The notes below the pieces were generated by a model, which saw only the letters and a list, made by a program, of their open reading frames with translations, was not told where the DNA came from and searched no databases. This document shows, piece after piece, positions 7,399 to 38,807 of a DNA stretch of 57,758 nt (within the stretch, counting starts at the first letter, position 1; the number at the start of each line of letters is the position of its first letter). Source of the stretch: Thermoproteota archaeon (GTDB lineage: Archaea; Thermoproteota; Methanomethylicia; Methanomethylicales; JAGHCH01). Location of the stretch: assembly GCA_021160575.1 (NCBI GenBank), contig JAGHCH010000008.1:1-57758 (forward strand), read 5' to 3'. The position numbers and the translations under genes are program-made.

Positions 7399-7494
7399 TT
7401 TGCTTTCGCTGCTTTCGATGAGCGGCGAATTCGATATCCATCTAAACAACAGCTAAAGCTGCTGACTGCGCTCCATTCAGCTGGGTAAGGCGCA

Positions 7495-8163
7495 GTGAAA
7501 CGCGGAGCTCTCAGGAAGTGGAGGCGGCTGGCGAAAATTACTGCTTTAGCTGGACTGGCTGTCTTCGGGCTGAAAGCCCCTGTACTCTGGGTGCCCTTGG
7601 CGATGTATGGAGTAGGCCTCGTCTACAGCTGGTTTTCGGAGAGAAGCGGTGTGAATCGCGGGAAACGTGACGCTTCGAGGGATCTTAGAAAGCTAAGAAA
7701 CCTCTTTGTCAAGAGATTCGCTAGCGGCTCTCCAAGTTGGGGAGTTCTACGAGCTGTTACAGTTGAGTTCTACGAGCCGGGAGTGGAGTCCCCTTGCATT
7801 GTTGTCAGAGATTGCAGGGGAGGGTTACTTGGGCTAGGCTGCCTGACAGTGAGAACCCGTGGCTCTAGGGATTTCATGGAAGGTGTTTGTGACGCAGCAT
7901 CAAGGCTTGGAGTGAAATTCACCTCTACTGTTGACTATAGCGTTGAGGAGCCCATGACATACCTCATAGTGCGGGTGCATCAGCCGCTTGAGGGAGTTGA
8001 AGCGGAGCGCGCCATGGTTCATGCGGTTTCAGAGGGGCTGCTCACCTTGATAGCCGCCATCTACTCGCAGTGCCCAGAAGCCGATGTTGAGGTGCTGAGG
8101 GGACGGCAGCTTGAGAAGCTTGTGGAGGGCTTGATCTATGGCAGGCTTAGAGCGGAGGAGTAG
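7495..8163 (+). CDS. membrane-anchor module (2 TM plus soluble domain) matching the N-terminal third of the HerA/CedB-like ATPase at 36996
   Basis: Basic N-terminus, then ITALAGLAVFGLKAPVLWVPLAMYGVGLVYSWF (2 TM), then a soluble domain of about 150 aa. This is the same layout as residues 1-200 of the 603-aa protein. It overlaps the next gene by 26 nt. Confidence 0.55.
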   Translation: MKRGALRKWRRLAKITALAGLAVFGLKAPVLWVPLAMYGVGLVYSWFSERSGVNRGKRDASRDLRKLRNLFVKRFASGSPSWGVLRAVTVEFYEPGVESPCIVVRDCRGGLLGLGCLTVRTRGSRDFMEGVCDAASRLGVKFTSTVDYSVEEPMTYLIVRVHQPLEGVEAERAMVHAVSEGLLTLIAAIYSQCPEADVEVLRGRQLEKLVEGLIYGRLRAEE

Positions 8164-9484
8164 AAGCCGCCTAGCCTTTAAGGTCTGCGATGAAATCTCT
8201 TGGATAGCCGAGGCAGCTGTGAAAGGGGTTGTCGGCATCTTCGGAGGAGAGCGGCGCGAGTTTACACTTGCTTTGGTGGAGGAGCTTTGCAAGGAGAATA
8301 GGGACTGCGTGGTGGTTTGCTGTGATCAGCGATTCCTCCAGCTGGGAGTGCGCTATAGTAGGTTTAGAGTCGCGAGGCTCGGTGTTAATGCGTCGCTCAA
8401 CCCCTTTAAGCCAGTTGGAGAAGTCGACCCCGAAGACTATGCGGTCATGCTGGTGGAGCTGCTAATGGAACTTCTAGACCTAGATCAACTGCAGGCGAGG
8501 TACTTGCTAAGGGCTCTCAGGAAGCTTTACGAAGGTGAGCGGCTGGACCCTTCGGTGGAGGAGGTTGACGACGCCCTACTCGCGGTTGAAGCGGAGATCA
8601 CTGCTAGAGAGCTCTTCAAGCTTGAGGCTGTGAGGGGGTTGTTGGAGGAGCTCTCCACTGGAGGCTTGGCTGCAGTATTCTCCAGCTGCTCCCCCATCTC
8701 TGAGGAAGAACTCCTAAGCAAGCCGTCGATACTGGATCTCTCTCAGATTCCTGGAGCTAGGTTTAAGGCGCTGGCTGCAGCGCTGACTCTGCTCAAAAAG
8801 CTTCTTCTTAGGAGATCACTATCCTTTATCATGGATGAGGCAGCTTTCGTCTTCTCGCCCGGTGGAAGGCGGACGAGGAAACACTGCCTCCTTGAACTGC
8901 TTGATGGACAGGCAGTGAGGGGAGGAGCAGTTCTACTTGGTTTAGAGCCCAGTGAGTTCTCCGTTGACGTCTATGCTCGCTGTGCAGTCAAGGTGTTCAC
9001 CAAGCCTCTCAGCATAGGGAGTGGGAGGAACTTCAATGAACTTACTCCACCATCGCTGCCTCTGCACTCGGGAGAAGCGCTGGTGGTCTCGGAGGGTCAG
9101 CAAATTTCCTTAGTTAGGTTTAAGGTTAGGGAGAGCCTCCTCACCGAGGAGGAGCTTGCAGAGGAGCTTAGGATACCTAGAGAGTGGCTTCCTCGGAGAA
9201 CGGGAAGGAGGAGCCTCCTCCAGCGGATTTTAGGAGACCGCTTCCTAGCAGAAGAGGCCTACAAGCTACTATGCTTCCTCAGAGGGAATAGAGCGCCCTA
9301 CAACGGCTTAAAGGGGTTCTCCAATCTCCCCGACCAACTCTTCGAAGGCATCCTCAGAGCGCTTCTCAGACACAAGCTGATTGCAAGCTACTTCGATGAC
9401 AAGGGGATCCGCTGGTTTGTGGTCACCGACCTCGGAGAGCAGGCAGCCGACGAGTACTCCGAGAAGAGGGGAGGCGATGGCTGA
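8138..9484 (+). CDS. HerA/FtsK/VirB4-superfamily (DUF87-like) ATPase homologue with degenerate Walker A
   Basis: Colinear with 36996..38807. GIFGGERREFTLALVEEL aligns with AIFGATGSGKTTTAATILVKL; SLNPF with VLNPF; ILDLSQIPG with VVDLSNLGD; SFIMDEAAFVF with VIVVEEASNIM; LHSGEALVVSEG with LSPGEALVVSPS. The GK[ST] lysine is absent. Confidence 0.65.
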   Translation: MAGLERRSRSRLAFKVCDEISWIAEAAVKGVVGIFGGERREFTLALVEELCKENRDCVVVCCDQRFLQLGVRYSRFRVARLGVNASLNPFKPVGEVDPEDYAVMLVELLMELLDLDQLQARYLLRALRKLYEGERLDPSVEEVDDALLAVEAEITARELFKLEAVRGLLEELSTGGLAAVFSSCSPISEEELLSKPSILDLSQIPGARFKALAAALTLLKKLLLRRSLSFIMDEAAFVFSPGGRRTRKHCLLELLDGQAVRGGAVLLGLEPSEFSVDVYARCAVKVFTKPLSIGSGRNFNELTPPSLPLHSGEALVVSEGQQISLVRFKVRESLLTEEELAEELRIPREWLPRRTGRRSLLQRILGDRFLAEEAYKLLCFLRGNRAPYNGLKGFSNLPDQLFEGILRALLRHKLIASYFDDKGIRWFVVTDLGEQAADEYSEKRGGDG

Positions 9485-9828
9485 TGAGCCATGTGAGGTG
9501 GATCTCGGAGCACGCGGTGAGATGGTACATTGGTAGGGTTGGAGGAGCTTTCCGCGTCGCGGTGGTTGAGCTTGTTGAGAAGGAGGATGGCACAAGGCTG
9601 GTGGTGAGGAAGGTGCAAGAGATCAGGAAGCGTGGGAGCACGAGGGAGGTTTACAGAGAGGTCTACTCGCTGGGCTACTTCAAGGAGATCTTGGAGGCCG
9701 AGAGGGCGCTCTTGAGCTTGGCGTCCTCCAGTGGTGTCGAGGAGAAACTTCTGCAAGCGCTCAGCCACTTGAGCTCCGCGCTTCACGCGCTGAAAAGTGA
9801 GGAGAGGAGGGGAGGTGAGGATCTGTGA
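9484..9828 (+). CDS. hypothetical protein (operon member)
   Basis: 114-aa ORF whose start codon begins at the final stop-codon base of the upstream gene (1-nt overlap at 9484, ATGA-type junction) and whose stop overlaps the radA GTG start. No motif recognised. Confidence 0.5.
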   Translation: MSHVRWISEHAVRWYIGRVGGAFRVAVVELVEKEDGTRLVVRKVQEIRKRGSTREVYREVYSLGYFKEILEAERALLSLASSSGVEEKLLQALSHLSSALHALKSEERRGGEDL

Positions 9829-10772
9829 ACTTGAAGCTTGAGGATCTTCCAGGTGTTGGTGAGGCTACAGCTCAGAAGTTAAGGAAGGCAGGAATACTTT
9901 CCGTGGAGGATCTTGCAGCTCTCTCAGCAAGGGAGATTGCTCAGAGAGTTGAGGGGTTATCCGAGGATAGGGCTTTCAGCCTTGCGAAAGAGGCACGCAG
10001 GCGGCTAGGAATAGGCATCTACACAGCAAAGCAGTACTTGGAGAAGCGTAGAAGTCAGCCGAAGCTCTCCACGGGCATTAGAAGCTTGGATGAACTGCTT
10101 AGAGGTGGACTTGAGCCGGGAATCACTGAGCTTATTGGAGGCTATGGCACTGGCAAGACGCAGCTATGCCTTCAGCTCTGCGTTACAGTGCAGCTTCCAC
10201 CAGAGAAAGGAGGGCTCTCAGGCAAGGCCTTCTTCATAGACACTGAGCACACCTTCTCCCCAGATAGGATACCAGCTATAGCTCAGCGCTTTGAACTCGA
10301 CGGTGACAGTGCCCTCGAAAACGTGCTGGCAACTTATGCTGTAAACACAGATCACCAAATGGAGCTGGTGCATGAAGCCGCGCAGTATGTGAAGAGGGAG
10401 AATGTGAAGCTAATCATCATCGACAGCTTAACAGCGCACTTCCGCAGCGAGTTCCCGGGAAGGGAGAACCTTGTAGCTAGGCAGCAGAAGCTGAACGCCT
10501 TGATCCACCAGCTCATTAGGCTCAGCATGATCTACGGCGTCGTCGTGGTGGTTACAAACCAGATTTTGGATATCCCGGAGTGCTTTCCGGGGATGAAGCC
10601 GTCTAAGCCCGCTGGAGGAAACATCGTGGCCCATGGATGTACCTTCAGGCTCTGGCTGGAGAGATCCAAGGACCTCACCAAGATCACCATCCTAGACTCT
10701 CCAAAGCATCCCAGAGCCTCAACATTGGTGAAGCTGACGGAGGAGGGCGTCGTTGATGCAGATGCCTCCTAG
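9825..10772 (+). CDS. radA: DNA repair and recombination protein RadA
   Basis: N-terminal HhH LEDLPGVGEATAQKLRKAGI. Walker A GGYGTGKTQL. FIDTEHTFSPDRI, HQMELV, IIIDSLTAHFRSEFPGRENLVARQQKLN, VVVVTNQI and KPAGGNIVAHG are colinear with RadA/Rad51. Confidence 0.92.
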   Translation: MNLKLEDLPGVGEATAQKLRKAGILSVEDLAALSAREIAQRVEGLSEDRAFSLAKEARRRLGIGIYTAKQYLEKRRSQPKLSTGIRSLDELLRGGLEPGITELIGGYGTGKTQLCLQLCVTVQLPPEKGGLSGKAFFIDTEHTFSPDRIPAIAQRFELDGDSALENVLATYAVNTDHQMELVHEAAQYVKRENVKLIIIDSLTAHFRSEFPGRENLVARQQKLNALIHQLIRLSMIYGVVVVVTNQILDIPECFPGMKPSKPAGGNIVAHGCTFRLWLERSKDLTKITILDSPKHPRASTLVKLTEEGVVDADAS

Positions 10773-11061
10773 GGGCAGTGCGTGGCTGCGTAGATGCATG
10801 ATAAGGGTTGGAGATGTGCGCGAGGTTATCGAGGGAGAGCTGTGGATCGTCGAGGGAAGGAGAGAGCTGGGAGATCAGGATAGGCGCTACTTCGTTTTTC
10901 GGAGGATTGTGGGGGGAAGGGAAGTCTTCACATGCTCTTGCCAGGATCCGACGAAGAGGTTCTCCTCAAGGAGAAGCAGGTTGACGTGTAGCCATATAGG
11001 GGCAGTTTTGATCTATAGGAGGATGAAGGAAAATGCTGGTCTTCGGAATACCAGTGCTTGA
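10753..11061 (+). CDS. SWIM zinc-finger protein
   Basis: CSCQDPTKRFSSRRSRLTCSHIGAV fits the CxCx(n)CxH SWIM signature. Overlaps radA by 20 nt and the next gene by 29 nt. Confidence 0.7.
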   Translation: MMQMPPRGSAWLRRCMIRVGDVREVIEGELWIVEGRRELGDQDRRYFVFRRIVGGREVFTCSCQDPTKRFSSRRSRLTCSHIGAVLIYRRMKENAGLRNTSA

Positions 11062-11656
11062 CCAGGTGGTTAGCAGCGCTAGGGTCGTGGTCATCTATGG
11101 AGAGGCTGGAGCAGGCAAAACCACCTTGGCTTTTCAAGCTCTCCTCACCACCCTCGCAGAGGGCGGAGCAGGGCTACTAGCGTTGAGCGAATCAGCCGTA
11201 GCGGATAGGCTTGCTGACATGGCTGGAGAGCAGTGGGAAAGTGTTGCTGAGAGGATCTACATCTGCGAATTAAAGAGGCTCTCAGACTTGGAGGAGCTCG
11301 TTGAAGTAGCTGGAGAACTTGGTGACTTGAGGATGGTTGTAGTGGATGGCGTGGATAGGATCTATAGGGGAGCTATAGGCGACTTTGAAAAGAACGTGGT
11401 TGTAAGTAGAGTGCTTAATGAGCAACTCTCTCGTTTAAGGGCCCTAGCTTACGGCAGGGGGATAGATCTAGTTGAGACCGTCGGCATGACGGTGGGGAGA
11501 ACGCCAGTAGCTGGAGAGGTTGTCTTGAGGTATGCCGACCTAGCATTGGAGATCGCCGATCTGGGGGGAGATCTAAGGCTGTTGAAAATTACGAGGCCAT
11601 GCTGCTTGCTCGAAGCTAAGCTGAAGTTGGAGAGCCGCGGCTTCACCGCTCTCTAG
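11033..11656 (+). CDS. RadA paralogue (RadB/aRadC, KaiC-like core ATPase)
   Basis: Walker A VVVIYGEAGAGKTTLAFQALL and Walker B MVVVDGVD. Core-only length of 207 aa with no HhH domain. Confidence 0.75.
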   Translation: MLVFGIPVLDQVVSSARVVVIYGEAGAGKTTLAFQALLTTLAEGGAGLLALSESAVADRLADMAGEQWESVAERIYICELKRLSDLEELVEVAGELGDLRMVVVDGVDRIYRGAIGDFEKNVVVSRVLNEQLSRLRALAYGRGIDLVETVGMTVGRTPVAGEVVLRYADLALEIADLGGDLRLLKITRPCCLLEAKLKLESRGFTAL

Positions 11657-12554
11657 CAGTTATTCTTTCAACTATTTCTTTGAGAAGCTCTTCCGACGAC
11701 CTGCCGGGAGCTTCTATATCCTGGCACGGCTTCTTGAAAATTTTAGTAACAGCGTTTACTTGTTTCCCGTCGAACGTGCCAAAGCTTTCGACGAGTTTTC
11801 TCAAGAGGGAGCACTCATAATCCAAGTTCACTAGACCAGTGTAGTCAAAGAGAAACTCCACGGTTTCTGGAGGGATGGAGATCACGTCGTCTAGAGATGG
11901 GTTGAAGTCTCTAGGACTTGCCGCTAAGCCCCCAGCTTTGAGGATCTGTGAAAGCCGCCAAGCCTGCTCCCCTATGACGGGATGGTCGAGAATGCAGGAG
12001 GATAGTATGAGCAAGCCTAACCTCTCATGCTCACCTACATAGGAGGCATAGCCATAACGGGTCATGAGATCCTTTAGCCTTAAATCCAGTTTTTCGGCAT
12101 GAATGGAGAGGTTCACTGCCTTTGATGCTATATGCTCTGCTATTTCTGAGATTATAATAGGAGGCTTGATGGATACCCATCCACCCTCAAAACCCCCTAA
12201 AAGTGTTATGAAAACCAGCTTTTTGGAGAATCTCTGCGAGATATTGACATATAGGGAGCTGCGTAAAACCGAGAGATCCCTCCAAAGGACATCCGAAGCA
12301 AGAGAGGAACCCTTCTCGGTTAGAGCCATTACTAGCATGGGGTTGTCTTCAGCAGTGCATAGAACCCTTCTCTCTATGAGCCCGTATCGCTCCAGCAATA
12401 GGTAGAGATCTTCACCCACACGCTCCTTAAACTGCTCCACCGATGGAGTGTAGGCAGCTCCCCCAGCAGCGTAAATCCTCTTGACGAGCTGGTAGACGGG
12501 CTCTGGGTCGAGCCCCATCTTGCTGAAGATGAGGTTGAACTCGCCTATTGACAT
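11643..12554 (-). CDS. hypothetical protein
   Basis: 303-aa ORF with coding-like composition and no recognisable catalytic motif. The N-terminal region may be wHTH-like. Confidence 0.5.
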   Translation of the reverse strand: MSIGEFNLIFSKMGLDPEPVYQLVKRIYAAGGAAYTPSVEQFKERVGEDLYLLLERYGLIERRVLCTAEDNPMLVMALTEKGSSLASDVLWRDLSVLRSSLYVNISQRFSKKLVFITLLGGFEGGWVSIKPPIIISEIAEHIASKAVNLSIHAEKLDLRLKDLMTRYGYASYVGEHERLGLLILSSCILDHPVIGEQAWRLSQILKAGGLAASPRDFNPSLDDVISIPPETVEFLFDYTGLVNLDYECSLLRKLVESFGTFDGKQVNAVTKIFKKPCQDIEAPGRSSEELLKEIVERITARER

Positions 12555-12901: not shown

Positions 12902-13585
12902 TTGGAGGGGTTGAAGATAGTTCTGCGAATTGTAGTTGATGAGCGGGAGAAGGGCTCAGAGGTGCCCTCTTTCCTAAGGAGGATGGGAGTTTACTTGGTA
13001 TTTGCTCAGCTGGGCGTCGGGGATTACGTGATCTCGGAGAAGTGTGCTGTGGAGCGTAAGGAGGTAAGGGACTTCATGTCGTCCATCTTCAGTGGAAGGC
13101 TCTTCGACCAGGCGGGTAGGCTTGTGGAGCTCTATTCTAGGAGTGCTATCGTTGTGGAGGGGGACTTTAAGGGTCTTGAGAGCTATCTTGAAAAGCCTAA
13201 GGTGTTTTGGGGCGCAGTATCGTCGCTGATCGCCGATTATGGGGTCTCAGTGGTCTTCACGGGAGATGAGGAGGAGACGGCGATGCTTCTCTACGGCTTA
13301 GCGAAGAGGGAGCAGGAGGAGAAGGCTTTGAGGAGGGTGGTGGTGAAGAAGAGGCTTCCAAAGAAGAGCTTGAGGGAGCAGCAGCTTTACGTGCTTCAGA
13401 GCTTGCCGGGGATAGGGGCGACTTTAGCTGAGAGGCTGTTGGAGAAATTTGGCTCTCTAAGGGGTGTTTTCACGGCTTCTCCTGCCGAGCTTCGGCTTGT
13501 GAAGGGAATGACGTGGGAAAAAGCTGAGGAGCTGCACAAGCTCTTTAATGAAAAAGCTGGAGGAGACGAGGAACCCCTCATGTAG
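12902..13585 (+). CDS. xpf: short-form XPF/ERCC4 structure-specific endonuclease with C-terminal (HhH)2
   Basis: VVDEREKGSEV, GDYVIS and VERKEVRDF give the ERCC4 GDx(n)ERKxxxD signature. C-terminal LQSLPGIGATLAERLLEKFGSLRGVFTAS is an HhH motif. 227 aa with no helicase domain, as in the crenarchaeal short form. Confidence 0.88.
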   Translation: MEGLKIVLRIVVDEREKGSEVPSFLRRMGVYLVFAQLGVGDYVISEKCAVERKEVRDFMSSIFSGRLFDQAGRLVELYSRSAIVVEGDFKGLESYLEKPKVFWGAVSSLIADYGVSVVFTGDEEETAMLLYGLAKREQEEKALRRVVVKKRLPKKSLREQQLYVLQSLPGIGATLAERLLEKFGSLRGVFTASPAELRLVKGMTWEKAEELHKLFNEKAGGDEEPLM

Positions 13586-33393: not shown

Positions 33394-33576
33394 GTGGAAG
33401 AGCTCAGAAGGAGAGTTCAGGTGCTCGAAGAGAAGGTGCTAGCCCTTCAAGATGAACTCACTCAACTTGAGTACGCCATGGAAGTGGTCTATGAAATTCT
33501 TGAAGTGAAATCTTACAAGCATTTGAGAGCCCATAGATTGGGTGAAGGAGATGTTCTTGAAGCGGTTGGGCATTGA
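33394..33576 (+). CDS. small coiled-coil protein (first gene of the rightward pilus operon)
   Basis: 60-aa heptad-like LRRRVQVLEEKVLALQDELTQLEYAMEVV. GTG start. Overlaps the ATPase start. Confidence 0.35.
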   Translation: MEELRRRVQVLEEKVLALQDELTQLEYAMEVVYEILEVKSYKHLRAHRLGEGDVLEAVGH

Positions 33577-35491
33577 GAAAAGTGCTATTCAAGCGCTTGA
33601 GCAGGTTTATGCAAAACTTGCCTACAAAAGAGTTAGAGATTGTAATCTCACAGTAAGCATTAATGGAACACTTCATGTTTTCACGTCTAATCATTTGAAG
33701 CTGTTGATGCGCATTAGGGAAACTTTAGATGAAATACGTGAAAACGCTAGGAAGAAAAGCAAGTGCGATAAATGCATAAGATCAGCTCTAGGAGAGAACT
33801 TAGTGCAAAACTTACAGGCATTAGCGAAGATATGCATTAGCAGCTTTCCATCAAGAGAGGTCAAGTGTAGAAAATGCTGGCTCGTGGAGGAAAAGGCGGC
33901 TCGACTACTTAATGAGGATTTCGCTGAGTACGCTAAGCTAATGACATCAGAGGAGAATTTGGTTAGAGCATTTTTAAATGCATTAAAACCATATATTATC
34001 GAATCGCCGCACGCATGCGTCCTTAAGCATTCAAAACTGGTGCGCAGCTACGAGATTTGGCCCTTTAAGATTTCTCTGTTAGAGGGGGATATCTTCACTG
34101 CATATATGAGCACTTTATGCGTGGCTCAAGAGATATGGTTGTTAATTGATGCAGTGACGCTGAAGACGCTAGAGAGGGAGGAAGAGGGAGGAGTAGATGG
34201 CTATCATCTCAGAGAAATTTTAGAGTCGAGGAAGGAGAAAGCGCTTGAAATTCTCAGAGAGCTATACAAGCATGGCTTCAAGTTGCCAGAGAACTGGCAG
34301 AAGCTTGGAGAGTTAGTAGCCTTTAGATCCTGTGGACTTGATGAGCTCTATCCACCACTGTTGGATGAGAGTGTAGAGGAGATCAACATCCTCAGCTTTG
34401 GAAAAACTACGTGGATACATCATAGCGAGCTGGGGGGATGCATCTACAACCGCCGAACCTATGATGCAGCTCAGCACTTAACTTCATTAGTAAAATTGGA
34501 GACGGGGATTCCCCTTGACGAAGAGAGACCTTACATCAAGGCAACTATACAAACTCATGATTTCAAGGCGAGAGTATCCATAGATATTCCACCCATTGCT
34601 GTTGATGGGTTGACTATCTCCATTAGGAAGTTCAGGGTAAAGCCATTCACTTTAGCGGAACTAATAGCTAGAGGCACTCTTACAGCAAAGGCAGCAGCGT
34701 ACCTTTTATGGAATCTCTACCATAGAAGGAACATCAGTATCGTAGGGGAGAGCGGGGCGGGGAAAACCACCCTAGCTGTTGCCTTAGATGCATTAAGCCC
34801 TCCTTGGAGGAAAATTTCGATAGAGGAGGAGGCTGTTGAAAACATTAGTCAAAGGGATTTTGGTATTGAACACGTTAGATACTTGACCTTAGCTTCAAAG
34901 CGAAGAGAAAGGGAGGCCGTACTCCTAAATATTCTGCACAAGTCCCCGGTATACGTATTCCTTGGAGAGGTATTGTACCCAGAGGATAGTAGAATGCTAT
35001 TTCACATGTTGGCGTCAGGCATCAAGTGCATCCACACGTGTCATGCTGAAGATGTGCCGCAACTGCTTAGCAAGTGGAAGAACTACCATGGAATTCCTGT
35101 GGAATCCCTGCTTGATCTAGATCTTTTAGTGGTTATGAAGAAAAGCCTTGGCAAACCAGTGTGCCGAAGAGTAGTGAAGATTTGCGAAATCGAGAAGAGA
35201 CTATATGGGGGGATGGTTGAAATTGTTGAGGTCTTTGTATTCAACCCCAATACCCAAGAACTTGAATGGAGGTTAGCGGGTATAGATAAAGCGCCCTCCA
35301 TTAGAAGAGCGATTGCAGAGGGTTATTCGCTCAGCACAATTCTAGAGGAGCTGGCATCGTATGAGAGAGCGCTTGAGCGCTACGCGTTGCTGAAAGAACA
35401 TAGCATGGAGGCTCTTCGAAGAGAACTTCTCGAGGTGAGAGAACGTGTTCTTTCTAAGAAAATTGAAGTGGGGGCGCAGGCGACCTTCTAG
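33542..35491 (+). CDS. type IV pilus / archaellum-family secretion ATPase (FlaI/TadA/VirB11-like) with extended Cys-containing N-terminal region
   Basis: RVSIDIPPIAVDGLTISIRKFRVKPFTLAELIARGTLTAKAAAYLLW, Walker A IVGESGAGKTTLAVAL, Walker B VFLGEV, and His box IHTCHAED. The N-terminus carries CDKC...CRKC. Confidence 0.85.
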   Translation: MKEMFLKRLGIEKSAIQALEQVYAKLAYKRVRDCNLTVSINGTLHVFTSNHLKLLMRIRETLDEIRENARKKSKCDKCIRSALGENLVQNLQALAKICISSFPSREVKCRKCWLVEEKAARLLNEDFAEYAKLMTSEENLVRAFLNALKPYIIESPHACVLKHSKLVRSYEIWPFKISLLEGDIFTAYMSTLCVAQEIWLLIDAVTLKTLEREEEGGVDGYHLREILESRKEKALEILRELYKHGFKLPENWQKLGELVAFRSCGLDELYPPLLDESVEEINILSFGKTTWIHHSELGGCIYNRRTYDAAQHLTSLVKLETGIPLDEERPYIKATIQTHDFKARVSIDIPPIAVDGLTISIRKFRVKPFTLAELIARGTLTAKAAAYLLWNLYHRRNISIVGESGAGKTTLAVALDALSPPWRKISIEEEAVENISQRDFGIEHVRYLTLASKRREREAVLLNILHKSPVYVFLGEVLYPEDSRMLFHMLASGIKCIHTCHAEDVPQLLSKWKNYHGIPVESLLDLDLLVVMKKSLGKPVCRRVVKICEIEKRLYGGMVEIVEVFVFNPNTQELEWRLAGIDKAPSIRRAIAEGYSLSTILEELASYERALERYALLKEHSMEALRRELLEVRERVLSKKIEVGAQATF

Positions 35492-35975
35492 CGCGCATGA
35501 TTTACGGAAAGAGTTCCTAGCATGTGCCATGATAACCACTGCTTTATCCTTGAAAATGCCCTGGACTAAGGCGCTTATAGCCGCTAGCAGCGTGCTCGAG
35601 AAGCGTTTCACTAAAGCACTTGTCAGGCTAAGAAGCGGAGAAGAGGATCTTAGGGTGTGGCTTGAGGAGGCGCCTAAAGCGGGATTCCAAAGATGGTTGG
35701 ATGTAGAAGCACTTTCTGTAGGCAGTGCTGAAGTGTCAAAGGAGGCGCTTAAGAGCCTCGAGGAGAGCCTTGTAAGAACAGCTAAAGCCAAATTTGAAAG
35801 AATGAAGCTGCTAACGCTGATTGTTGCTGCAACAGCATTTATTGCGCCAGCCCCATTAATCATAGGGCTATTTATCGCTACCGAGGCGCAGGCACCCGGT
35901 TCGGCAGTGCTGGCTCTACACATAGCAATCTTAGTCCTAGTTGCTAGAGCAATGCTCAGGAGGAGTAGTTCTTGA
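35445..35975 (+). CDS. T2SS-F/TadB-like platform protein (half-size)
   Basis: Helical cytoplasmic domain followed by LLTLIVAATAFIAPAPLIIGLFIA and AVLALHIAILVLVA. Lies adjacent to the ATPase. Start uncertain (ATG 35529 possible). Confidence 0.55.
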   Translation: MFFLRKLKWGRRRPSSAHDLRKEFLACAMITTALSLKMPWTKALIAASSVLEKRFTKALVRLRSGEEDLRVWLEEAPKAGFQRWLDVEALSVGSAEVSKEALKSLEESLVRTAKAKFERMKLLTLIVAATAFIAPAPLIIGLFIATEAQAPGSAVLALHIAILVLVARAMLRRSSS

Positions 35976-36730
35976 CTAGAAAGATCACTTCTTTTATCTG
36001 CGCATTAGCTTTCTCTGTGGAGATGCTGATATCAACGGGCATGCTATTCTTCGCATCAGCGGTGGGGATCACGGTCTTTGTAGCCGTAGAAAGGGGATTA
36101 GCACTCCTAGAGAGGGAACTGCTCAAAGAGATGTACTGGCTGAAAAGACCAAGCACCAGCTGCTTGAGAAGACTAGGGATTCTCTTGAAACTGCTAAGAG
36201 AATACAGCTTTGAGAGAGCACTTTTAGCGGCTACACAGCCTAATGAAACCACATTAAAGGTGAAGCTTAGATCTGGAGAAATCATGGAAAGGCTCTTTGA
36301 TGACTTAGACTCTGAAGAGAGAGTGATCTTAATGAACCTCTTAGAACTTGCAAGGAGGGATGCAAGGAAGGCCTCTATTTATGCAAGGGAACTTTACAAG
36401 ACCTTGTCAAGACTTGATAGAGCTGCACAATGCTTCGAAGAGTGGAGGAAAATTCTTTCAATGAGAGCGAAACTCCTCATCGCTGCATTCTCTACGACTT
36501 TAGGTTTTCTCTCGGTGCTTATTCCTATCATACTGCATGCATCAAAGATCGCTTTTAGCATGTCAAATTGCTTGTCACTATTGCTAACACTCTACGCCGT
36601 GGCAAGTGTCTCGGCCCATGTAATCTCAAGCATAGCGGGAGGATTTGGCAGGAATCTCGCTTTAGCAACTACTTGTTATGTTTCTTCAGCCATAATGGCA
36701 TGGAGCTTAACAGCCCCTCTAAGCTTTTAA
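35972..36730 (+). CDS. T2SS-F/TadC/FlaJ-like platform protein (half-size)
   Basis: N-terminal TM pair, a helical cytoplasmic domain of about 120 aa, then three C-terminal TM segments (the GspF/FlaJ topology). Its start overlaps the previous stop by 4 nt. Confidence 0.55.
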   Translation: MTRKITSFICALAFSVEMLISTGMLFFASAVGITVFVAVERGLALLERELLKEMYWLKRPSTSCLRRLGILLKLLREYSFERALLAATQPNETTLKVKLRSGEIMERLFDDLDSEERVILMNLLELARRDARKASIYARELYKTLSRLDRAAQCFEEWRKILSMRAKLLIAAFSTTLGFLSVLIPIILHASKIAFSMSNCLSLLLTLYAVASVSAHVISSIAGGFGRNLALATTCYVSSAIMAWSLTAPLSF

Positions 36731-36759
36731 ATAGAAAGCTCATTCTCTGGGGGATCAAA

Positions 36760-36990
36760 TTGAAGAAGCTAAGGGAATGGCTTAGGGATAGAAGGGGATC
36801 ACCACTAGTCGAAGAAGCGCTGTTGCTGGGAATCGCCGCCATAACGCTATCCATAGTGCTCTCCATGATAGCAGGCTTTCTATCATCCGTCCAAGGGGTA
36901 TTTGATGTTAACCTAGCGAACTTTGACGCCATAAAAGAGCAGCTTAAGCAGGCTTGGGAGACACTAATAAAGTTCTTTAGACTAGGCTGA
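36760..36990 (+). CDS. Flp-like / archaeal type IV prepilin (76 aa)
   Basis: From TTG 36760 (GGGGG SD 8 nt upstream): (M)KKLREWLRDRRG/SPLVEEALLLGIAAITLSIVLSMIAGFL. This gives a basic leader, a Gly, a Glu at +5/+6, and a hydrophobic helix. The listed ORF 36568..36990 extends upstream into the previous gene. Confidence 0.6.
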   Translation: MKKLREWLRDRRGSPLVEEALLLGIAAITLSIVLSMIAGFLSSVQGVFDVNLANFDAIKEQLKQAWETLIKFFRLG

Positions 36991-36995
36991 GAGGG

Positions 36996-38807
36996 ATGTC
37001 CAGCAGAGGTAGGGGTAAAAGCGACTTAGTGGCAGCGCTCATAGGGCTGGCCGTGCTTCTGGGCTTGAGATACTACAGAGAAGCTCTTTGGCTTTTCAAC
37101 ATTGAAGTACCGTGGAAGTTAGCTATAATGGTCGGCGGAATAATCGTAGCTGCGCTGCTGCTCTGGAGGAAAAGCGAAATCTTCAGGGTCCTTGTGAAAG
37201 GTAAACCTAGGAGGGGTAGGACCTCCATAGTTTCTGATAAAGGAGCAATTATTGCACCTGATGGAGGTCGCTATAGAGCCTACATGGCTTTTACAGCCTC
37301 CAGCGATGGAGGAGGGGAGAAATTTCTTGAAAGTCTTGACCGAGCAGGAATTCCATTTCTCTATTTGTATGCATCACCAAATGCTGCAGAACATGGAGGA
37401 GGAAACTCCCTTATACTGCTCTGCTCCAAGCCCTCTAAGGACGTGTTTAGATGCTTAGAGGAAGTTGAGCACTTAGCGAGGCAGGTGGAGGCTCTGGCAA
37501 GCGCTATGGATGAAAATGTCCAGCTAAGCTTAGTTCGGCTCGGCGGCATTGACGATCTACTGAATCTCTGGAGAATACGGGAAGTGCATGGTCAGAACTC
37601 CGGTGAGAAAAGTCTACTGAGGCCAAAAATTAAGCCCAGGTGCTACCTTGGAAACCTTGACGAGACATTACTCCTAGGAAGGGTGAGCTTTGGAGGAAAA
37701 ACAGGCCACTCAGTATTCTTGCCTAAGAGGGAGATTCTCCGGCATACAGCGATCTTTGGAGCCACAGGCTCCGGGAAGACCACGACTGCTGCCACAATAC
37801 TGGTAAAACTGCTTGAAAAGGGAGTTAATGTTCTCGTCATTGACTGGCATGGAGAATACTGTGAACTTGTTAAGAAAGTAGGAGGAGATATTTTTACACC
37901 AGGAGGGGAAGAGCACCCGATAGTTTTGAATCCCTTCGAGCTAATACAGGGCGCAGACGTCGAAGAAAGCTTGGATCTCTTCGTGGACTTTTTCAGCGAT
38001 CTCTTCCACCTATCACATGCACAAGTATTCATGTTAAAGGAAGCTGTTCGAAACGCTTACGAGAGTGCACTTGCAAGGGGGAGTCCTCCGACGCTTGCAG
38101 ATGTTATCCAAGAAGTTGGAATGATCCCTATAAGGTCAGGTTGGGATCACGAGACAAAAATGGCGCTTCTAAGAAGACTAAAGAAGTTAACTGAAGGGAA
38201 GGCGGGGAAAGCTCTTAATGGGCCTTCGACAGCGGATTTACATCAGCTCTTCAGCGGCTTTAAAGTTGTGGATCTAAGCAACTTAGGCGACTTGACCGTG
38301 AGAAGTGTTGTGGCTGCGACTATCTTGAAGCTAGCCTACGACTACTTCACTGCTCTTGGAGGCTCTGAAGATTTAAGACAAGTGATAGTGGTTGAGGAAG
38401 CCTCTAACATCATGCCACCCAGGAGAAGGGAAGACCCCCCAGGGGTAGGAGAGAGGGTGCTAATGGAGTTAAGGAAATACGGAGTTGGCATGATCATCTT
38501 AGCTCAATCTCCAGCAGCTGTTTCAAGTGAAGTATTGAAGAACACTTCAATAAAAATCGTGCATGCTTTGAGGAGCAGTGAAGATTTGAGAGCTCTGCCT
38601 AGCTTAATGTTGGCTGAAGATGAAATTAAGCAGAGAGTTTTGAAGCTGAGTCCCGGAGAAGCTCTCGTAGTGAGTCCAAGCTATCCGGAGCCAGTAGTCG
38701 TGCGTATTGAGCCACCTGAAGTTATATGGGAGGGTTCTCCGAAAAGAAACGGTTTAACAGCTTTTTCTGAGCTAACTCGGCTAGCCAGTTTACTTGACCA
38801 GGCCTGA
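36996..38807 (+). CDS. membrane-anchored HerA/FtsK/VirB4-superfamily ATPase (DUF87; CedB-like)
   Basis: Two N-terminal TM segments (LVAALIGLAVLLGL, LAIMVGGIIVAALLLW), Walker A AIFGATGSGKTTTAA, and Walker B VIVVEEASNIM. Confidence 0.8.
   Translation: MSSRGRGKSDLVAALIGLAVLLGLRYYREALWLFNIEVPWKLAIMVGGIIVAALLLWRKSEIFRVLVKGKPRRGRTSIVSDKGAIIAPDGGRYRAYMAFTASSDGGGEKFLESLDRAGIPFLYLYASPNAAEHGGGNSLILLCSKPSKDVFRCLEEVEHLARQVEALASAMDENVQLSLVRLGGIDDLLNLWRIREVHGQNSGEKSLLRPKIKPRCYLGNLDETLLLGRVSFGGKTGHSVFLPKREILRHTAIFGATGSGKTTTAATILVKLLEKGVNVLVIDWHGEYCELVKKVGGDIFTPGGEEHPIVLNPFELIQGADVEESLDLFVDFFSDLFHLSHAQVFMLKEAVRNAYESALARGSPPTLADVIQEVGMIPIRSGWDHETKMALLRRLKKLTEGKAGKALNGPSTADLHQLFSGFKVVDLSNLGDLTVRSVVAATILKLAYDYFTALGGSEDLRQVIVVEEASNIMPPRRREDPPGVGERVLMELRKYGVGMIILAQSPAAVSSEVLKNTSIKIVHALRSSEDLRALPSLMLAEDEIKQRVLKLSPGEALVVSPSYPEPVVVRIEPPEVIWEGSPKRNGLTAFSELTRLASLLDQA

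Follow-up and report, generated by a model that had tools for sequence, protein, structure and literature searches.

In the Sulfolobales, DNA import requires CedD (PMC11868833, PMC11823120), and the paralogous ATPases CedB and CedD belong to one machine, with CedD aiding the expression of CedB (PMC11868833). The Ted DNA-import loci of the Thermoproteales commonly carry HerA-like and ParA-like genes and, in Pyrobaculum, "rad50" genes, and Beltran et al. propose that at such loci DNA import is coordinated with homologous recombination (PMC9905601). The present study concerns a six-gene operon in which a relative of CedD, predicted to be dead as an ATPase, is encoded together with the strand-exchange protein RadA. 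The operon lies in a 57,758-nt stretch of DNA from a Thermoproteota archaeon (positions 1 to 57,758 of contig JAGHCH010000008.1, assembly GCA_021160575.1), hereafter "the window"; the contig holds protein record MCD6408857.1, locus tag J7L98_00745 (Ca. Verstraetearchaeota archaeon, Methanomethylicia), and a 98%-identical copy is found in GCA_054474275.1. In order, the genes encode a putative membrane anchor (gene 1), a putative dead ATPase of the FtsK-HerA superfamily (gene 2, the "pseudo-ATPase"), a small protein (gene 3), RadA (gene 4), a SWIM-type zinc-finger protein (gene 5) and a RadA paralogue (gene 6). Coordinates are collected in Table 1.

To our knowledge, the loading and regulation of RadA in archaea are poorly understood, and published work merely hypothesizes, for the Ted loci, some coordination between Ced- or Ted-mediated import and the recombination machinery to which the imported DNA must find its way. 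The operon offers a concrete and conserved candidate module for an accessory function of RadA, or for such a DNA hand-off, in a deep set of Thermoproteota that includes two cultured Methanosuratincola species. Our preferred reading, which we regard as quite possible but hold only tentatively, is that the radA operon has been passed on vertically in Methanomethylicia, Culexarchaeia and related Thermoproteota, and that in it RadA is accompanied by a dedicated accessory module made up of a scaffold and a mediator pair. Genes 1 and 2 would each encode one half of what was once a membrane-anchored translocase of the CedD/HerA type, which lost its ATPase and gained a winged helix. Their products would assemble into a DNA-binding platform that is tethered to the membrane but is no longer a motor, and that probably still forms a ring. 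With the gene 3 protein, this platform would keep at the membrane either a broken end of the chromosome or DNA brought in by the paralogous machine of the CedD type. It would present this DNA for strand exchange to RadA, itself made in step from the same mRNA and in stoichiometric amounts. The products of genes 5 and 6 would act as a mediator pair that helps RadA filaments form, analogous to the Shu complex (SWS1 plus a Rad51 paralogue).

All six open reading frames (ORFs) lie on the plus strand and each overlaps the next, by 26, 1, 4, 20 and 29 nt in turn; coordinates and overlaps reproduce exactly those given in the original prediction, an earlier reading of the window from its letters and ORF list that had proposed a dead HerA/VirB4(CedB)-like ATPase coupled to RadA, a SWIM finger and a RadA paralogue. 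The sequence GGAGG begins at -14 or -15 before all five internal start codons, within the preceding ORF. Such a site occurs at 5.5% of positions in the window and at 9% inside the operon, and five of five would be met by chance with a probability of ~6e-6. The gene 1 start, which follows a 96-nt gap, has no GGAGG site at that spacing. With overlapping ORFs and a GGAGG before every internal start, the sequence fits a single translationally coupled unit.

The core of the argument is gene 2. Its product is a paralogue of a 603-aa ATPase encoded some distance away in the same window (BLASTP E = 5e-7, 25% identity over 257 aa), and the BLASTP alignment keeps the LNPF, DLS, D/EEA (Walker B region) and GEALVVS motifs colinear, as the original prediction had noted; compared as families, the pseudo-ATPases and the active CedD-like proteins align across the whole ATPase domain with an hhalign probability of 100% (E = 2.1e-39). 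An AlphaFold2 (AF2) model of gene 2, built on a 22-sequence family alignment, has a pLDDT of 83.6 and a pTM of 0.75 (a 3-sequence alignment gave a pLDDT of 47). Searched against the PDB with Foldseek, it matches HerA (8xau, E = 1.1e-8), TrwB (1e9s, 5.8e-8), DndH-C (7es4) and VirB4 (4ag6), all at E values of 1e-8 to 1e-7 with probability 1.0 and a TM-score of ~0.5. Model and profiles alike thus support the HerA/VirB4-like fold expected of this protein, and the modelled structure places it among the RecA-like ASCE P-loop domains of the FtsK-HerA superfamily.

What distinguishes gene 2 from its active relatives is the state of the ATPase site. In the profile alignment, the GATGSGKTT of the active ATPase stands against GG and ERREFT separated by a three-residue gap. 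Neither the P-loop lysine nor the following Ser/Thr is present in any of the 22 members of the gene 2 family, while the G, G, K and T/S positions are filled in 17 of 17 active relatives. G36 is kept in all 22 and R39 in 16, and nothing else in the Walker A region of the family is conserved; R39 sits exactly at the former P-loop position. In the AF2 model beta1 (residues 31-35) is joined to alpha1 (39-52) by just three residues, so that the phosphate-binding loop is gone. The decay extends beyond Walker A, which is all that had been noticed earlier: the first acidic residue of Walker B persists in 20/22 members, whereas the catalytic glutamate position is filled in only 10/22 (16/17 active relatives), and the sensor glutamine found in 16/17 active relatives is lost from the family.

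When 1.84 billion representative proteins were searched exhaustively with HMMER, a three-sequence gene 2 profile returned 146 hits. The top-scoring ones are proteins of 425-533 aa that match over their full length, and a Walker A motif is found in none of them; remoter hits do bear GxxGxGK[ST], and the best P-loop-bearing one, P0023, is the window's own 603-aa product. (A word-indexed search with the gene 2 family profile recovers few members.) A local mutation or sequencing error is ruled out as the source of the P-loop loss by this family-wide absence, and the loss first proposed for the window copy is thereby established for the family. The motif losses predict that gene 2 is a former DNA translocase that neither binds nor hydrolyzes ATP. 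We regard the family as a new pseudo-enzyme family within the FtsK-HerA superfamily, so far annotated as hypothetical: its members are named only "hypothetical protein" or wHTH domain-containing, and the gene 2 product finds no match in searches of Pfam, NCBIfam and PDB sequences, nor any to CedD NF053655 at E <=0.1. As a separate observation, in Methanosuratincola sp. XY_C20_T55_P1_bin.49 (contig L013, 4315-5698; loci outside the window carry L numbers) the gene 2 counterpart is broken into two overlapping ORFs of 189 and 279 aa. The break is restricted to that metagenome-assembled genome (MAG) among the loci, and is either an assembly frameshift or a genuine pseudogene.

The original prediction described the ATPase part of gene 2 correctly and overlooked its C-terminal domain. 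The last ~90 residues are conserved in the pseudo-ATPase family and missing from the CedD-like family. Among PDB sequences, a profile of 20 family C-termini retrieves MarR (2rdp, the best match, E = 1.8e-4), IclR, PadR, AspA and TubR, and the AF2 topology of this region is H-H-H-beta-beta-H at a pLDDT of ~90-95. NCBI names the Baldrarchaeia member a "winged helix-turn-helix domain-containing protein"; in single-sequence Pfam searches, none of six gene 2 family C-termini matches an HTH family. Profile and model together point to a winged helix-turn-helix (wHTH) domain, predicted to bind DNA.

Gene 1, for its part, appears from its sequence to be the detached membrane anchor and N-terminal domain of a CedD/HerA-like ATPase. 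Its hydropathy is highest over residues 15-37, and residues 30-47 make up a further hydrophobic stretch. Pairwise BLAST of gene 1 against the 603-aa ATPase gives no significant match, and gene 1 likewise has no match in Pfam, NCBIfam, PADLOC, PHROGs or PDB sequences. When the gene 1 family profile is used, residues ~100-212, which belong to its soluble domain, align with residues 75-191 of the 603-aa ATPase (hhalign probability 87%, E = 3.9e-6), a region that begins right after that ATPase's two membrane helices (hydrophobic stretches at residues 7-27 and 36-60). The proposal that genes 1 and 2 together reproduce the architecture of the 603-aa protein is thus borne out for both halves, by profile alignment for gene 1 and by BLASTP and hhalign for gene 2. 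The split into two genes is found in every lineage examined, with junction overlaps that differ (4, 8, 17 and 26 nt). Two ORFs everywhere, joined in different ways, bespeak an ancient split and no artefact, and a frameshift or sequencing error is ruled out on the same grounds.

Neighbourhoods were compared for 12 lineages of the pseudo-ATPase family, a genome scan with RadA having served to find loci. In 11 of the 12, anchor, pseudo-ATPase, (small protein) and RadA follow one another on one strand as overlapping or abutting genes. These lineages include the metagenomic contigs L001, L004, L005/L006, L007, L009, L026 and L027; they also take in seven Ca. Methanosuratincola genomes, among them the complete genomes of the cultured M. 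petrocarbonis LWZ-6 and M. verstraetei LCB70, as well as Ca. Culexarchaeum (L023) and a Thermoprotei MAG (L024). All six genes are found together again in L005, L023 and L024, and L026 has the same layout with a sixth gene (139 aa) unmatched by the paralogue profile. The neighbourhood is therefore conserved as such, and the six-gene composition originally reported holds for the window, but the conserved core is one of four genes, with the SWIM protein and the paralogue variable. Across the 12 lineages, pairwise identity is 40-63% for RadA and 16-37% for the pseudo-ATPase, and the two identity matrices are correlated (Pearson 0.86, Mantel p ~2e-4), which argues for joint vertical inheritance of the two proteins. 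In each complete Methanosuratincola genome, the RadA scan finds a single RadA locus, namely the operon copy; at the RadA loci of Heimdallarchaeia and others in that scan, the accessory module is absent.

The recombinase of the operon is a bona fide RadA by sequence: gene 4 scores 356.3 bits against NCBIfam RadA NF003301 (cut-off 259), matches Pfam Rad51 (4.5e-71) and HHH_5 (2.8e-11), and has its P-loop, GYGTGKT. Its nearest relative among RadA proteins of GTDB species representatives is that of Ca. Methanosuratincola, at 59% identity. Gene 3 belongs to a family of ~100-125 aa with K49 and Y61 invariant in the alignment and is located between the pseudo-ATPase and RadA in all surveyed loci but L001; no relative of it was found in Pfam, NCBIfam or PDB searches.

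Could genes 1-3 simply be inert, the decaying remnants of a conjugative or import element that integrated beside radA? The loss of catalytic motifs and the division into two ORFs do look superficially like pseudogenization. This explanation seems to us scarcely credible, being contradicted by conservation, selection and domain gain alike: intact ORFs with the same split are kept in 12 lineages at 16-37% identity, the Shine-Dalgarno sites are conserved, a wHTH domain has been newly gained, the family alignment yields a high-confidence AF2 fold, and the ratio of nonsynonymous to synonymous substitution rates (dN/dS) is 0.24-0.28 (relative to the 98%-identical copy, the range over all six genes is 0.08-0.46). 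Nor are there matches to mobile-element, defence or phage families, PADLOC and PHROGs giving none for genes 1, 2, 3 and 5. A defence system or a phage or mobile element was rejected as the identity of the locus on this ground, the neighbouring genes being housekeeping genes that vary by lineage.

The winged helix invites a different account, in which the pseudo-ATPase with its wHTH is a transcription factor, held or released by gene 1, that controls its own operon, and radA with it, when DNA is damaged or a signal comes from the envelope, and that takes no direct part in strand exchange. Pseudo-enzymes joined to a wHTH are a common regulator design, the C-terminal domain does match regulators of the MarR, IclR and PadR types, genes 1 and 2 come first in the operon, and several loci have palindromes before their gene 1. 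We nevertheless judge this account unlikely. The translational coupling of three conserved non-RadA proteins to an abundant recombinase would be unusual for it, and it leaves aside that the HerA-like ring domain and the N-terminal domain have been kept over deep divergence despite there being no evident ligand site. Moreover, the PDB matches of the wHTH include AspA, a DNA-segregation/partition protein, and TubR ("DNA-binding protein TubR"), neither deposited as a transcription factor, and a separate ArsR/MarR-type regulator gene already stands beside the operon in L005/L006, L007, L009, L023, L024 and L026 and farther off in L027.

That regulator gene, of the HTH_5/HTH_20 kind, is divergent just 5' of the operon in five lineages and may be the operon's own regulator; it is not adjacent in the window. 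As to the palindromes, the one in the window, CAGCTAAAGCTG, may be a promoter or operator element, a role for which it is at present a candidate. ATCTAAACAA occurs upstream of the first gene in both the window and L001, and L001, L004 and the Methanosuratincola loci have related TTAAG/CTTAA-type palindromes 5' of their gene 1. In L011, L012, L015 and L021 palindromes stand ~45-90 nt 5' of gene 1, those of Methanosuratincola including TTAAGATCACTTAA and TTTTTCTAGAAAAA, likewise candidate promoter or operator elements.

To return to the scaffold of our preferred reading, its closest described counterpart is CedD of the Ced system. The 603-aa ATPase of the window matches NCBIfam CedD NF053655 with an E value of 2.9e-64 and CedB with only 3e-6; the label "HerA/VirB4(CedB)-like" used in the original prediction therefore stands as to the HerA family, and is to be amended from CedB to CedD. 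Since its 217.6 bits fall far below the 600-bit equivalog cut-off of that model, the ATPase is by sequence "CedD-like" at most, and so is the gene 2 product. The radA-linked pair resembles CedD in the putative membrane anchor at its N-terminus, in its N-terminal domain and in a P-loop domain of the HerA/FtsK type. It differs in being split in two genes, in having no Walker A and, across its family, a degenerate catalytic glutamate and sensor, in its added C-terminal wHTH and in its fixed place beside radA.

This kinship suggests another possibility, namely that the dead paralogue is an adaptor or inhibitor of the active CedD-like motor, with which it would assemble or which it would cap, the linkage to radA serving only for co-regulation after DNA damage. 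The two proteins are indeed close paralogues within one genome, and a precedent exists in the paralogous CedB and CedD of the single Sulfolobales machine (PMC11868833). The idea strikes us as improbable: the pair lies 27 kb from the active gene, yet is fixed beside radA in 11/12 lineages and co-diverges with RadA, and it has a membrane anchor of its own and a wHTH that the active paralogue does not possess.

A chromosomal role of the FtsK kind has also to be weighed, in which the dead ring would give sister chromosomes an anchor or an orientation, at the membrane or at the site of division, for RadA-dependent repair or dimer handling, with no DNA import involved. The domain order of membrane anchor, FtsK-HerA P-loop domain and C-terminal winged helix is that of FtsK/SpoIIIE (the gamma domain of FtsK supplying the winged helix), the predicted fold falls in the FtsK-HerA superfamily, and the wHTH matches include two partition proteins, AspA and TubR. 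Unlike the present pair of polypeptides with no ATPase site, however, FtsK is a single polypeptide and an active motor, and its function needs the ATP-driven translocation that the motif losses in gene 2 are predicted to exclude. The sequence affinity of gene 2 is to the HerA/CedD clade instead, its nearest active relatives being CedD-like import ATPases and not FtsK, and none of the loci examined has a division gene or an Xer recombinase next to the operon. We consider such a role distinctly improbable.

A HerA-superfamily protein genomically linked to recombination genes is also what one finds in the herA-nurA-mre11-rad50 operon of thermophilic archaea and in Ted loci. The HerA proteins there, though, are active as helicases or translocases and cooperate with a nuclease to resect ends, whereas gene 2 is predicted to be unable to hydrolyze ATP, to be membrane-anchored together with gene 1 and to bear a wHTH; and the coupling here is to the strand-exchange protein itself, not to Mre11, Rad50 or NurA. 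By homology, and by analogy with the proposal for the Ted loci (PMC9905601), the function put forward in the original prediction, in which the recombinase would receive incoming or broken DNA at the membrane, is plausible.

The second part of the proposed accessory module, the mediator pair, rests on genes 5 and 6. A profile search with gene 5 returns 165 homologues, and the signature CxC-x13-15-CxH is present in 120/120 of those listed, followed at position +3 after CxH by Ala in 117/120 and Ser in 3/120. NCBI lists those of Pyrobaculum under the name "SWIM zinc finger family protein" (SWIM also in UniRef), and one homologue has a precomputed match to Pfam SWIM (PF04434). The earlier identification of gene 5 as a SWIM finger is sustained by this invariant CxCxnCxH signature, with the Pfam score, to which we return, below threshold. 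The family profile has no match at E <=10 among PDB sequences. Gene 5 also fits the extended motif CXC...Xn...CXHXXA used for defining Shu2/SWS1 (PMC6316741).

Gene 6 matches NCBIfam RadB TIGR02237 with 51.1 bits (E = 1.5e-13; cut-off 172.4) and a Sak4-like PHROGs family at 7e-6, and in the window its Walker A is intact. It is, as first proposed, a RadA paralogue, and by sequence one of the RecA-core type that is not RadB proper. Like RadB/aRadC, it is a RecA core with no N-terminal helix-hairpin-helix (HhH) domain, and in the window copy both Walker A and Walker B are intact. It differs from them in its low score (51 vs 172 bits), in its fixed place downstream of radA and the SWIM gene and in the loss of Walker A from its counterparts. 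These positional counterparts are ~165-185 aa long and have, for instance, YGDRNAARG in place of Walker A; they are found in L005, L012, L014, L015, L021, L023 and L024 (Methanosuratincola, Culexarchaeum and others), and their assignment to the RecA fold, made from sequence, is tentative. An intact Walker A in the window and its loss elsewhere suggest a second operon protein on the way to becoming a pseudo-ATPase.

The SWIM gene is followed by the RecA-core paralogue in the window, L005, L023 and L024, and in Pyrobaculum (L025) a RadA paralogue lies one gene away. A small SWIM protein partnered by a small RecA-core paralogue recalls the Shu complex, in which Shu2/SWS1 is joined by Csm2-Psy3-Shu1 or SWSAP1 (PMC5727457, PMC6316741), the more so as the operon's paralogue has no ATPase motifs in most lineages and adjoins the recombinase it would regulate. 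Motif and gene adjacency are the grounds of this comparison, and there are differences: the SWIM spacer is 13-15 residues in the gene 5 family and 59 in yeast Shu2, and the Methanosuratincola operons do without a SWIM gene. A mention in passing of Shu2 orthologues "from archaea to humans" (PMC5727457) implies that the Shu-like idea may not be wholly new. With these provisos, the pair is a possible prokaryotic root of the eukaryotic Shu complex, the origin of which is otherwise obscure.

Several observations weigh against our preferred reading of a scaffold and mediator pair dedicated to RadA. Not all members of the module are constant: gene 3 is missing from L001 and the SWIM gene from Methanosuratincola, L004 has neither SWIM nor paralogue adjacent, and the Asgard (Baldrarchaeia) pair does not adjoin radA. 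The Pfam SWIM match of gene 5 (12.4 bits, E = 0.12) falls short of the gathering score of 19.6, albeit at the correct position (residues 60-88), and alanine at +3 is frequent across SWIM domains in general and is no proof of SWS1 orthology. A profile of the degenerate gene 6 counterparts alone links them weakly, at E ~0.004, to the window gene 6 and the RadA core. A pseudo-enzyme that bears a wHTH would be just as typical of a regulator of transcription. Finally, complex formation, location at the membrane, binding to DNA, the link to DNA import and the mediator role, and with them all protein-protein and protein-DNA contacts, are what we infer from sequence and gene order.

A bolder version of the same scheme would make the operon a complete and hitherto unrecognized archaeal recombination hub of two modules. 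One module would be a membrane-tethered, ATPase-dead CedD/FtsK-type ring with a winged helix of its own, which catches DNA coming in via the paralogous import motor, or a broken end, and passes it to RadA, as a functional counterpart of the DprA-type hand-off of bacterial transformation; the other, the SWIM/degenerate-paralogue pair, would be the prokaryotic ancestor of the Shu complexes (SWS1-SWSAP1, Shu2-Csm2-Psy3). If true, this would place the origin of the Shu-type Rad51 mediator in Thermoproteota-like archaea; taken as a whole, we think it rather improbable.

In these Thermoproteota, RadA appears translationally coupled to three or more uncharacterized proteins, one of them a predicted dead, anchored paralogue of a DNA-import ATPase with a predicted DNA-binding domain. 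Genes 1-3 are unrecognized by the curated libraries Pfam, NCBIfam, PADLOC and PHROGs, and full-text literature searches yielded no description of a radA operon of such composition, in keeping with the original prediction, to which none was known, nor of an archaeal Shu-like pair. The operon points to a recombination accessory machine not described before. It combines known kinds of things, a pseudo-enzyme of the FtsK-HerA superfamily and a recombinase accessory module, and in that sense forms no new category.

Table 1. Coordinates of the operon and of related features (window positions unless a contig is named)
Feature	Position	Strand	Description
Palindrome CAGCTAAAGCTG	7450-7461	+	In the 96-nt gap before gene 1
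Gene 1 (222 aa)	7495-8163	+	Predicted membrane anchor and N-terminal domain of a CedD/HerA-like ATPase
Hydrophobic hairpin, gene 1 residues ~11-47	7525-7635	+	One or two predicted membrane helices flanking nearly invariant Pro29
Gene 2 (448 aa)	8138-9484	+	Predicted dead FtsK/HerA-superfamily P-loop domain and C-terminal winged helix
Walker A remnant GIFGGERRE, gene 2 residues 33-41	8234-8260	+	Loop between beta1 and alpha1 shorter by 3 residues, no Lys or Ser/Thr
Walker B remnant FIMDEA	8825-8842	+	D233-E234 present in the window copy
Winged helix-turn-helix domain, gene 2 residues ~357-445	9206-9472	+	Predicted from profile vs PDB and AF2 topology
Gene 3 (114 aa)	9484-9828	+	Conserved small protein of a family with no assigned fold
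Gene 4, RadA (315 aa)	9825-10772	+	HhH N-terminal domain and Rad51 core
Gene 5 (102 aa)	10753-11061	+	Stand-alone SWIM zinc finger; alternative start may be ATG at 10756
SWIM motif C61-S-C63-x15-C79-S-H81-I-G-A84	10933-11004	+	Invariant in the gene 5 family alignment
Gene 6 (207 aa)	11033-11656	+	RadA paralogue, RecA core only
Walker A of gene 6, GEAGAGKT	11099-11122	+	Intact in sequence
T2SSE/VirB11/FlaI-like ATPase (649 aa)	33542-35491	+	Pfam T2SSE 1.8e-12
Three small ORFs	35445-35975, 35972-36730, 36568-36990	Same strand as the 33542-38807 cluster	No family match
Active CedD-like HerA/FtsK-family ATPase (603 aa)	36996-38807	+	GATGSGKT; Pfam DUF87 2.6e-22
ArsR/MarR-type regulator, divergent upstream	L005 4506-5162; L007 4605-5126; L009 310-828; L023 4674-5273; L024 4433-5140
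ArsR/MarR-type regulator, other positions	L027 35-415; L026 7149-7616		Further upstream in L027; downstream in L026

The active ATPase is the last gene of a same-strand cluster (33542-38807) that opens with the T2SSE/VirB11/FlaI-like ATPase. From its gene content the cluster may encode a pilus or a Ced/Ted-like DNA-uptake apparatus; no CedA, CedA1 or TedC homologue was identified.

An eleven-gene same-strand cluster of Pyrobaculum aerophilum (NMUF01000049.1; L025, 1-8461) includes a 191-aa SWIM protein of the gene 5 family, a membrane-anchored HerA-like ATPase of 658 aa whose P-loop is of the active kind (GISGMGKS), a P-loop protein of 302 aa that has an NPLD motif, an ORF of 145 aa and a full-length divergent RadA paralogue, which at 112 bits is below the RadA cut-off. 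As a candidate Ted-like locus, the cluster resembles the accessory genes reported for Ted loci, in which the recombinase-like gene goes by the name "rad50". In the Ca. Baldrarchaeia contig (L022, 1007-7602), the one surveyed lineage in which the pair is not beside radA, the anchor/pseudo-ATPase pair closes a same-strand run made up of a RadB-like protein of 220 aa, an ORF of 291 aa, a DEAD-box helicase of 708 aa and two small ORFs. The pair shows the module to be present in an Asgard member too, where its repair-like surroundings are different. A ParA-like gene that follows this pair was considered as the VirC1/ParA of Ted loci and rejected, being NifH/CfbC-like and unrelated.

Immediately downstream of the operon in the window, a 303-aa ORF on the minus strand (11643-12554) is convergent with gene 6 and overlaps it by 14 nt; its one Pfam match, at E = 0.025, is not significant. 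Two genes downstream lies an ERCC4/XPF-type nuclease gene with an HhH domain (12902-13585, plus strand). Both are kept in the close relatives L002 and L003, and the nuclease gene places a second DNA-repair gene beside the operon in the lineage of the window.

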